Part shown: positions 24,091 through 29,331 of the stretch, piece after piece
Layout: every line of letters begins with the position of its first letter
How positions within the stretch are numbered: position 1 is the first letter of the stretch
NCBI RefSeq assembly: GCF_054482595.1
Contig: NZ_CM137008.1
Reading direction: 5' to 3' (one strand)
Length of the DNA stretch: 64,000 nt
Position numbers and translations under genes: made by a program
The notes under the pieces: model-generated
Told to the model about the DNA's origin: nothing
Databases searched by the model: none
Seen by the model: the letters and a program-made list of their open reading frames with translations, nothing else

Positions 24091-27000
24091 ATGGCTTCGA
24101 CAAATGCGCATCAAATAAAAAATAATGATCAAAACTCTTTATGTGGTCTGGGTGACAAAATACGCCGCCTGACCGCCGGAGTTTGTTTATTTACACAAAT
24201 TTTTTTCCCCGTCATGGCGACGGCACAAAATGTGGTACATGCTAAACCTCAGACGACAGTTTCATCTGCCCCCCCTCTACTAGAAAATAATACGGTGCCT
24301 TACACGCTTGGTGCGCTGGAATCAGCGCAAAGCGTTGCTGATCGCTTCGGTATTTCACTGGAGGAGCTTCGTCGTCTTAATCAGTTCCGTACTTTTGCTC
24401 GCGGCTTTGATAACGTGCGCCAGGGTGAAGAACTGGATGTTCCGGCAACAACCTCGCAGAAAAGCCATGAGCAACAAAATGCCGTACCGCCTGCGAATGG
24501 CGAAAACACGCTGGAGAATCAAATAGCCAGCACCTCGCAGCGAGTTGGCACTCTGCTTTCACAAGATATGAATAGTGAGCAGGCCAGCGGCATGGCGCGT
24601 GGTTGGGCATCTTCAGAAGCCTCTGGCGCGATGACTGATTGGTTAAATAACTTTGGCACTGCGAAAATCTCTCTGGGTGTGGATGAAGATTTTAGCCTGA
24701 AAAATTCGCAATTCGACTTCCTGCATCCGTGGTATGACACACCTGATTATCTGCTCTTCAGCCAGCATACCCTTCACCGAACAGACGATCGTACCCAGAT
24801 CAACACCGGTTTGGGCTGGCGTCATTTCACCTCCAGCTGGATGTCAGGCATCAACCTGTTTTTTGACCACGACCTGAGCCGCTATCACTCCCGCGCAGGG
24901 CTTGGCGCAGAATACTGGCGTGATTATCTGAAGTTGAGCAGCAACGCTTATATCGGCCTGACCGGCTGGCGTAGCGCACCAGAATTGGATAACGACTTCG
25001 AAGCCCGCCCGGCCAACGGCTGGGATTTACGCGCGGAAGGCTGGTTACCTGCCTGGCCACAACTGGGGGGAAAACTGGTCTATGAACAATACTATGGCGA
25101 TGAAGTGGCGCTGTTTGACAAGAACGATCGTCAAAGTAATCCCCATGCTATTACCGCAGGCCTCAACTATACCCCCTTCCCGCTTCTGACTCTCAGTGCG
25201 GAACAGCGTCAGGGGAAGCAAGGTGAAAATGACACACGTTTTGCCGTTGATCTGACCTGGCAACCCAGCAGTTCAATGCAGAAACAGCTTAATCCGGACG
25301 AAGTGGCCGGACGGCGCAGTCTGGCCGGTAGTCGTTATGACCTGATTGATCGCAACAACAACATCGTTCTGGAATACCGCAAGAAAGAGCTGATTCGCCT
25401 GAGTCTGCTGGATCCGGTGAAAGGGAAGTCTGGAGAAATAAAACCGCTGGTTTCCTCGCTACAGACCAAATATGCCCTGAAAGGCTATAACATCGAAGCC
25501 GCTGCGCTGGAAGCTGCCGGAGGTAAAGTCAGCACGTCTGGAAAAGATATCACGGTCACGCTGCCAGGTTACCGCTTCACTAACACCCCAGAAACCGATA
25601 ATACATGGTCGATAGACGTTACCGCCGAGGATGTAAAAGGTAACCTGTCACGGCATGAACAAAGCATGGTAGTTATTCAGGCTCCGACATTAAGCCAGAA
25701 AGATTCTCTATTATCCGTTAATCCGCTAACCGTGGCTGCAGATAAAAAATCGACGACCACATTGACCGTTACTGCGCACGATTCCGACGGAACTCCGGTG
25801 CCGGGGCTGGCGCTGCAAACCCGCAGTGAAGGCGTTCAGGATATCACCCTGTCTGACTGGACAGATAACGGTGATGGTAGTTACACACAGATACTGACCG
25901 CCGGAACGACATCAGGTTCAGTAACACTGACGCCGCAAATTAACGGTGAGAGTGCGGTAAAAGAATCCATCGTCGTTAATATCGTCCCTGTTGTCTCATC
26001 CCGCGACCATTCATCAATAACAATTGATAACGTATCGTATTATGCCGGAGACGACATCAAGGTTAGGGTGGAACTGAAAGACGACAGCAATCAACCGGTT
26101 GCATATCAAAAAGAGGAATTGGTAAAAGCCGTTACTGTCGAAAACAGCAAACCTGGCACCACGATTGTCTGGCACGAAGAGCAGCCGGGCGTTTATACCG
26201 CGAATTATCCGGCCCATAAGCAAGGGACTGCACTAAGGGCACAACTTAGCCTTCACAACTGGAATGCTCCACTGCAATCGCATATTTATAACATTGAGGC
26301 AAACCAGAATAAGGCTCGCGTCGCCACATTATCAGCGACAAATAATGACGTTTACGCCGATAAAAAGACATTTAATACCCTCACTATCAACGTCACTGAT
26401 GAGAGTGATAATCCCCTGATAAATCATCAGGTCACCTTTAAGAATGAAAAAGGAAGCGCGGAATTTGTCGAACCGCCGCAGCAAAATACGGATGCATATG
26501 GTGTTGCCACAATCAACATGGTAAGTCAGGTTGCGGAAGAAAATACGATTAGCGCCACGCTGCCAAATGGTTTCTCACAACGGATAATTGCGAAATTTGT
26601 TAGCGATTCGAGTACGCCAAAATTCAAACAACTGGTTGCCGATCCAGATACCATTATTGCTGGCAACAGCCAGGGCAGTACTCTGACCGCCACCGTCACA
26701 GACTTTCATAACAACCCGTTAAAAGATATGAAAGTGAATTTTGTGGCACCTGGTGGCTCGCAACTGGACAACACGTCCGCCACAACAGACCAGTCCGGTA
26801 TTGTGCGAGTGCACCTGACCAGTTCAAAAGCTGGTAGCTATTCCGTCGATGCCTCGCTTGAGGCGGATAAAAATATTCACCAGTCGGTCACGATCACCGT
26901 GGTCCCAAACAGGGAACAATCGGTAATGACCTTGAATGCCGGGTCGGGCAGTGCGATCGCTAACAATACAAATACCGTTATCCTGACAGCCAGTGTGAAA

Positions 27001-29331: not shown

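Follow-up and report, generated by a model that had tools for sequence, protein, structure and literature searches.

Identification of iatD

The open reading frame (ORF) located at positions 24091..29331 (+ strand) of a 64,000-nucleotide (nt) stretch of contig NZ_CM137008.1 (RefSeq assembly GCF_054482595.1), referred to below as the window, is iatD, a chromosomal Escherichia coli gene encoding an inverse autotransporter adhesin of type Ve. This assignment follows from its 100% identity to a RefSeq iatD gene and from its synteny and colinearity with EcSMS35_4876 of strain SMS-3-5, the cloned 5,241-bp gene by which iatD was defined (Goh et al. 2019, mSphere, PMC6714894). The gene is therefore not a new one: it is already known, named, annotated in RefSeq and partly characterized. 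A first-pass annotation, made from the sequence alone, had described a very large intimin/invasin-type inverse autotransporter adhesin encoded by a single ORF of 1746 amino acids (aa). That reading of the gene was correct, but it went unrecognised that the gene was the named and partly characterized iatD.

The ORF starts with ATG and runs uninterrupted through 1,746 codons to the stop, a length far above chance expectation. The longest ORF in the other frames of the same interval has 77 aa, except for an 86-aa ORF which overlaps only the 3′ end of iatD. The GC content of the coding sequence (CDS) is 49%, that of the upstream intergenic region 34%, and that of the whole window 46.5%.

For genome comparisons, 5,426 complete E. 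coli genomes were searched by megablast. Strain XH990 contains a 100% identical match over 5,241 bp (WP_021557494.1), labelled in RefSeq as “iatD: inverse autotransporter IatD”, which supports the proposed protein class. This identity with an independent complete genome also speaks for the intactness of the window copy, in which no frameshift or premature stop occurs.

The iatD gene of SMS-3-5 (product ACB20062.1) shares with the window copy 97.77% nucleotide and 97.94% aa identity; both encode 1,746 aa and no indels separate them. The aa identity is marginally below the >98% given for the IatD group, in a paper that counted 7 genomes (PMC6714894). The two genes nevertheless agree in length (5,241 bp), in their position between yjiJ and kptA, and in the genes upstream, and the domain layout published for SMS-3-5 IatD (PMC6714894) is that of the window protein. 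The order yjiJ-iatD-kptA is common to the window, XH990, EDL933 and SMS-3-5. The 36 aa substitutions between the two proteins reach their highest density in the lectin-like tip, with 5 per 100 aa, and in the periplasmic segment. Since synonymous codon differences from SMS-3-5 iatD outnumber non-synonymous ones (74 vs 36), the comparison suggests that iatD is under purifying selection.

Domain architecture of IatD

Domain searches, which the first-pass annotation had named as a check of the inverse-autotransporter architecture, came out in its favour on the basis of Pfam, PDB and structure matches. Most of the protein is assigned to a β-barrel translocator followed by a long extracellular passenger. 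The Pfam family IAT_beta (PF11924) matched aa 148-423 with E 6.1e-108 and 361 bits (cut-off 22.3), and aa 185-430 matched the solved barrels of invasin (4E1T, E 1.6e-81) and intimin (4E1S, E 1.2e-65), as expected from the β-barrel noted at first pass. The translocator with its linker thus covers aa 148-430 (24532..25380, + strand). The barrel is of the 12-stranded type, and every immunoglobulin (Ig)-like domain lies C-terminal to it, as type Ve requires.

The N-terminal 45 residues (24091..24225, + strand) form a putative extended Sec signal peptide, recognized by reading the translation. After a basic DKIRR motif comes the hydrophobic run LTAGVCLFTQIFFPVMATA, and cleavage is likely, as judged by eye, after A-T-A. 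This segment shows no aa differences from SMS-3-5 IatD.

A periplasmic LysM domain, predicted to be a peptidoglycan-binding module, was assigned to aa 65-119 (24283..24447, + strand) from a family profile and the predicted fold; it has an insertion in the second loop. IatD alone gave no significant match to Pfam LysM (E 0.026, 14.9 bits, cut-off 20.9), and its LysM segment alone, compared with solved structures, had 4UZ2 as its best LysM match (E 3.9e-4). In that single-sequence PDB search, designed dTor repeat proteins ranked first and were rejected as an artefact of summed weak repeat matches. The periplasmic segments of 13 diverse relatives were then aligned with that of IatD (14 sequences): 11 of the 14 match Pfam LysM individually (best E 2.7e-6), and the profile built from them matched the solved LysM domains of LytE (E 3.5e-13) and 4UZ2 (E 6.9e-10). 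The AlphaFold model of aa 65-119 has a β-α-α-β core with a predicted local distance difference test (pLDDT) score of 85-91, followed by a disordered linker, and all top Foldseek matches of the core are LysM domains, including the intimin periplasmic region 2MPW. The LysM domain of the first-pass annotation is thus upheld, at the level of family profile and fold only.

The first extracellular domain, aa 431-545 (25381..25725, + strand), appears to be D00-like. In the alignment to the NCBIfam intimin_all model, IatD 152-530 pairs with intimin 173-549; the match passes the end of the barrel at aa ~430 and includes intimin ~450-549, which is the D00 domain of intimin.

The stalk that follows consists of ten Ig-like domains of Big_1/Invasin_D3 type with a period of ~100 aa (aa 546-1541; 25726..28713, + strand). 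They were delimited with a profile bootstrapped from IatD itself, which returned ten domains with E 1e-18 to 3e-35. Pfam places Big_1 in 8 stretches (E 2.4e-123) and Invasin_D3 in 9 stretches (E 1.8e-90), and the array has structure matches in FdeC (4E9L) and invasin (1CWV). The long Ig-like array seen in the first reading is therefore genuine and comprises ten diverged Big_1 domains, whose pairwise aa identity is 10-40% (median 22%).

The stalk ends in a tip superdomain of two halves, an Invasin-D4-like Ig domain (aa 1545-1645; 28723..29025, + strand), identified with Pfam, AlphaFold and Foldseek, and a C-type-lectin-like domain (aa 1646-1746; 29026..29328, + strand), assigned from its structure match. 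Pfam Invasin_D4 matched with E 1.3e-5 and 26.1 bits, slightly below the 27-bit cut-off, and apart from this sub-threshold match Pfam calls no lectin-like domain at the IatD C-terminus. The AlphaFold model of aa 1545-1746, computed from an alignment of 50 relatives, reached pLDDT 97 and a predicted template modelling (TM) score of 0.90. Its best Foldseek match is invasin 1CWV (E 4.9e-13, TM 0.83, root-mean-square deviation (rmsd) 2.7 Å, 199 columns), followed by intimin 1F00 (TM 0.68) and then by snake-venom C-type lectin-like proteins. A C-terminal lectin-like domain, as first proposed, is accordingly confirmed by structure. The positions of invasin Cys907 and Cys982 are occupied in IatD by Cys1660 and Cys1742, which are kept in 47/50 and 46/50 relatives, respectively; the two would be expected to form a disulfide.

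In sequence the tip is 24% identical to that of invasin. A HMMER alignment to 1CWV places Ala1564 of IatD at invasin Asp811 and Asn1664 at Asp911, the latter in a loop that is poorly conserved and often gapped among relatives. Aspartates 811 and 911 of invasin are needed for integrin binding. IatD thus has a tip that is invasin-like in fold and lacks these residues, which makes an invasin-type integrin interaction unlikely.

The tip module is present in IatD as a single C-terminal copy. A representative-cluster search with the tip alone found 263 protein clusters (50% identity) that have the module at their C-terminus, and the nearest tip outside IatD is 47% identical. Three metagenomic relatives, P0127 (2,867 aa), P0146 (2,119 aa) and P0219 (873 aa), contain 8, 4 and 4 tip-module stretches, respectively.

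Constant length of the stalk

Arrays of Ig-like repeats were expected at first pass to vary in number between strains. This holds between members of the family, where, within the best 150 of the 263 tip-bearing clusters, those inverse autotransporters that are complete range from 597 to 2,809 aa, but not between strains for iatD, whose stalk length is fixed. All sampled full-length iatD DNA matches are 5,241 or 5,242 bp long, and 119/120 of the closest protein clusters have 1,746 aa, the remaining one having 1,747 aa. The identical protein belongs to a cluster (P0001) with 576 member sequences, and a full-length protein search returned near-identical IatD clusters only and no diversity. Likewise, no variability in IatD repeat number was found by Goh et al. 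(2019, PMC6714894).

Tandem Repeats Finder detected nothing in iatD DNA, and a direct-repeat search of the gene yielded only one chance 25-nt pair and no long repeats. The Ig-like domains are so dissimilar that recombination has nothing to act on for expanding or contracting the array, which fits this lack of DNA repeats. Repeat-number variation in iatD was therefore rejected.

Distribution of iatD and a frameshift in its C tract

Of the 5,426 genomes, 638 (11.8%) contain iatD DNA over its full length, and in 4,750 yjiJ and kptA are directly adjacent, without iatD. Codons 59-61 of the window gene contain a homopolymer of seven C (C7; 24269..24275, + strand). In the O157:H7-type allele this run has eight (C8), and the one extra C shifts the reading frame, which then meets a stop at codon 66. 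In EDL933 (O157:H7) the gene is annotated as a frameshifted pseudogene (positions 3001-8242 of the retrieved locus). Unlike the uninterrupted C7 of the window, the run of SMS-3-5 is interrupted (CCGTCCCC).

Exact matches to the O157/O55-type allele with C8 were found in 284 genomes and to the same allele with C7 in 21; the latter include O55:H7 strains, 493/89, LSU61 and several strains labelled O157:H7, e.g. ATCC 43889 and JEONG-1266. Some assemblies may contain homopolymer sequencing errors. By these counts, a single C-tract frameshift in O157:H7 has inactivated nearly half of the iatD copies, so that the gene is potentially intact in at most ~354 genomes (6.5%). The values given by Goh et al. 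(PMC6714894) are similar, with 6% for complete genes and 10% for ECOR strains positive by polymerase chain reaction. The C-tract frameshift receives no mention in the main text of that paper.

We read C8 as a probable case of lineage-specific decay rather than phase variation, because the tract is short (7-8 nt), C8 is nearly limited to one clonal lineage, and the run of SMS-3-5 is interrupted; on these grounds C-tract phase variation is unlikely. Reversible switching is conceivable since C8 (OFF) and C7 (ON) occur on the same allele, with C7 including O157:H7-labelled strains. Nonetheless, we see only a slim chance that the run is a slippage-prone ON/OFF contingency locus in the O55:H7/O157:H7 lineage, or that the loss of IatD was adaptive as typical O157:H7 emerged.

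Comparison with related adhesins

YeeJ and IatC share with IatD the LysM domain, the barrel, the Big_1 array and the lectin-like cap, but they are encoded at other chromosomal loci and differ in length (2,359 aa for YeeJ, 2,459-2,965 aa for IatC); the length of IatC varies between strains, whereas that of IatD is constant (PMC6714894). Homology is clear in the N-terminal third: the similarity of yeeJ to iatD at the DNA level (~77% identity) is confined to nt 199-1994, the passenger past aa ~665 being too diverged to match as DNA. An NCBIfam model of the IatC N-terminus matches IatD aa 12-839 with 1,126.9 bits, below its cut-off of 2,400. Relative to its paralogs IatD is a mosaic. YeeJ binds peptidoglycan and promotes biofilm, according to Martinez-Gil et al. 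(2017) as cited in a 2020 review.

Invasin of Yersinia pseudotuberculosis (InvA; 1CWV, 4E1T) resembles IatD in its barrel, in its tip superdomain with an equivalent cysteine pair, and in the colinearity of its D1-D5 domains with the last ~460 aa of IatD. IatD differs from it by the tip residues described above, by an approximately threefold number of Ig-like domains and by a LysM domain, which invasin does not have.

Intimin (Eae; 1F00, 4E1S, 2MPW) of enteropathogenic and enterohaemorrhagic E. coli (EPEC/EHEC) shares with IatD the LysM domain, the barrel, D00, Ig-like domains and the lectin-like tip, its region 2MPW being among the LysM fold matches. It is, however, much shorter (939-940 aa in the NCBIfam models, against 1,746 aa). 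Intimin is encoded in the locus of enterocyte effacement (LEE) and binds Tir; no LEE-type genes adjoin iatD, and IatD scores 357.3 bits against the intimin cut-off of 1,400.

Published function, predicted mode of action and alternatives

The protein of SMS-3-5 has been located at the cell surface by immunofluorescence, and its overexpression in E. coli K-12 led to biofilm in static microtitre and flow-chamber assays (Goh et al. 2019, PMC6714894). Adhesion and biofilm assays of a deletion mutant had been proposed at first pass; the published biofilm assay is one of overexpression, not of a deletion mutant (PMC6714894). A 2020 review places IatD among the type 5e proteins and gives “biofilm formation” as its function. 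A full-text search of the literature found no further paper naming the IatD protein besides these two, and no occurrence of Z5932 or ECs5292, locus tags that may be wrong.

Inverse autotransporters of type Ve follow a standard route to the cell surface, and we are highly confident that IatD would follow it as a whole. The extended signal peptide would carry the protein across the inner membrane through Sec, and the LysM domain would bind peptidoglycan and so retain the N-terminal end on the periplasmic side. The outer membrane would take up the 12-stranded barrel (aa ~148-430), through which the C-terminal passenger would thread outward; once outside, the passenger would fold into a rod composed of twelve Ig-like domains (the D00-like, ten Big_1 and the D4-like domains). 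This rod would display at its tip the disulfide-stabilised C-type-lectin-like domain, and rod and tip together, when expressed, would mediate surface attachment and biofilm. We infer the secretion route, the binding of peptidoglycan and the role of the tip as binding site from the family; surface display has been published for the 97.9%-identical SMS-3-5 protein.

Several points weigh against this interpretation. The signal peptide is putative, having been judged by eye alone. The reported biofilm was obtained by overexpression in K-12 driven by isopropyl β-D-1-thiogalactopyranoside (IPTG), and it came without autoaggregation and without binding of extracellular-matrix proteins (PMC6714894). 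No published work demonstrates that iatD is expressed natively. The promoter scan did no better than on shuffled sequence (8 sites found vs 7.4 expected, among them a site at 23895-23924), so that the iatD promoter was not placed. Finally, the gene is dispensable, as it is not found in ~88% of complete E. coli genomes, and its O157/O55-type allele bears the C8 frameshift in the 284 genomes mentioned above.

Some of these points would also be explained if iatD were transcriptionally silent in its native host and drifting to loss, with adhesin activity appearing only on artificial expression. The AT-rich upstream region (34% GC) without an above-chance promoter, phenotypes known from overexpression alone, the frameshifted O157:H7 copies, the clean absence of the gene from strain WB61 despite matching flanks (see below) and its occurrence in only ~12% of genomes all fit such a scenario. 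It is nevertheless rather doubtful: outside O157:H7 the frame is kept at 1,746 aa in 119/120 close homologs, synonymous differences from SMS-3-5 exceed non-synonymous ones two to one, and a 5.2-kb ORF is not expected to last long without selection. An artefact of annotation or assembly as the source of the long ORF can be practically discounted, and so can a pseudogene state of the window copy. The O157:H7 allele is indeed a pseudogene, but nothing in the window points that way: the frame is uninterrupted, the complete genome of XH990 carries the identical sequence, the P0001 cluster has its 576 members, and there are no tandem DNA repeats able to cause misassembly.

Two further alternatives retain IatD as a functional surface protein and assign it another partner. 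A functional invasin, binding β1 integrins through its D4-D5-like tip and triggering host-cell uptake as in Yersinia, would account for the tip being structurally nearest to invasin D4-D5 and for the alignment of the final ~460 aa with invasin D1-D5 (E 1.6e-24). With alanine and asparagine in place of the two aspartates, the second of them in a variable loop, only 24% tip identity, and 290.7 bits to the NCBIfam invasin model (cut-off 710), we regard this as highly improbable; extracellular-matrix proteins were not bound (PMC6714894), integrins and invasion being outside that assay. Even less credible is an intimin-like partnership with a translocated Tir-like receptor, working together with a type III secretion system (T3SS). 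Intimin 1F00 is the second-best structural match to the tip, and an espX6-type pentapeptide-repeat gene, whose EDL933 counterpart is the T3SS effector EspX6, lies in the same haplotype block two genes upstream of iatD. However, the score against the intimin model is far below its cut-off, no Tir-like or chaperone gene adjoins the yjiJ-kptA locus, and O157:H7, a lineage that carries both intimin and Tir and in which dependence on Tir should matter most, has iatD mostly as a pseudogene. The reading of IatD as a type Ve adhesin acting in surface attachment and biofilm is thus preferred.

Genomic setting and flanking sequences

Alignment of the window with a K-12-like genome revealed a mosaic of conserved and divergent segments around iatD. 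The segment from yjiS to ytiA (10613-18857) is 96.1% identical. It is followed by a low-GC pentapeptide-repeat gene (18858-21797; EspX6 in EDL933) found only in the window, by yjiK and yjiJ (21798-23858) with 80.7% identity, and by iatD (23859-29486), again only in the window; from kptA onward (29487-36664) identity returns to 97.9%. The gene iatD thus forms the right-hand end of a divergent haplotype block of ~10.6 kb (18858-29486), both flanks of which are 96-98% identical. This pattern suggests a replacement by DNA from a divergent lineage. The block is also present in XH990, EDL933 and SMS-3-5. In SMS-3-5, iatD is likewise preceded by a pentapeptide-repeat gene, a gene for an SdiA-regulated-domain protein and yjiJ, and followed by the convergent kptA.

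The pentapeptide-repeat gene of the window (19196-21523, GC 31-38%) encodes a 775-aa protein; the corresponding EDL933 gene bears the annotation T3SS effector EspX6. The K-12-like genome lacks it between ytiA and yjiK.

Strain WB61 has iatD-type flanks (97% identical) from which exactly 23842-29435 is missing. The iatD segment is bracketed by imperfect direct repeats, GGGATGCAAATATTCAAATT on the left (23842..23861) and CCCCTGCAATATATTGAATTT on the right (29436..29456), as identified from the WB61 alignment, and the WB61 junction falls at such an imperfect repeat of ~20 bp (positions 1940-1990 of the retrieved WB61 locus). WB61 may represent either the pre-insertion state or a deletion via the direct repeat. 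No integrase or transposase gene was found inside the segment 23842-29435.

WB61 has a longer yjiJ gene, of 1,188 nt, which overlaps with kptA. The kptA gene (29455-30039, - strand) has 585 nt in the window, SMS-3-5 and WB61, and 555 nt with a differing 3′ end in the K-12-like genome; in EDL933 it is annotated as frameshifted. Farther from iatD, window positions 5212-10612 carry other DNA in place of the hsdRMS-mcrBC “immigration control” segment of the K-12-like genome. The sole aligning piece there has 469 bp (7908-8376, 92.5% identity) and corresponds to 9334-9802 of the K-12-like sequence, mostly the symE CDS (9465-9806). A ~20-kb ibeA island (ptsP, dhaKL, gcl, ibeA and others) lies between iraD and hypT in SMS-3-5 (22154-42331 of the retrieved locus); in the window, hypT and iraD are adjacent (32680-33985) without it.

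The AT-rich intergenic region of 210 bp that separates the stop codon of yjiJ from the start of iatD (23881..24090, + strand) presumably holds the iatD promoter, and a Shine-Dalgarno-like GGAAGG (24080-24085) is situated 5 nt ahead of the ATG. Downstream, 18 nt past the stop, there is a perfect 13-bp stem-loop (29349..29378, + strand), first read by eye and then folded as RNA; the fold of 29332-29390 has -22.6 kcal/mol (z = -5.4) and its U-tract is weak. It is likely a transcription terminator or mRNA-stabilising hairpin shared with the convergent kptA. A scan for consensus terminators did not call this hairpin, and its counts did not rise above those of shuffled sequence. A palindrome resembling repetitive extragenic palindromic (REP) elements, GCCTGATGCGCTGCGCTTATCAGGC, was noticed by eye between the hairpin and kptA (29403-29427). 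An Rfam scan of 23000-30500 found no family at its gathering score.

Significance

With its intact reading frame, the iatD gene of the window cleanly exemplifies the large type Ve adhesins, but it is of small value as a discovery. Only mildly new are the fixed stalk length, the invasin-like tip in which the key aspartates are missing, the counts for the C-tract frameshift in O157:H7 and the description of the divergent haplotype block. The tip model, the allele census and the fixed stalk could guide the choice of strains and alleles for receptor or vaccine-antigen work.

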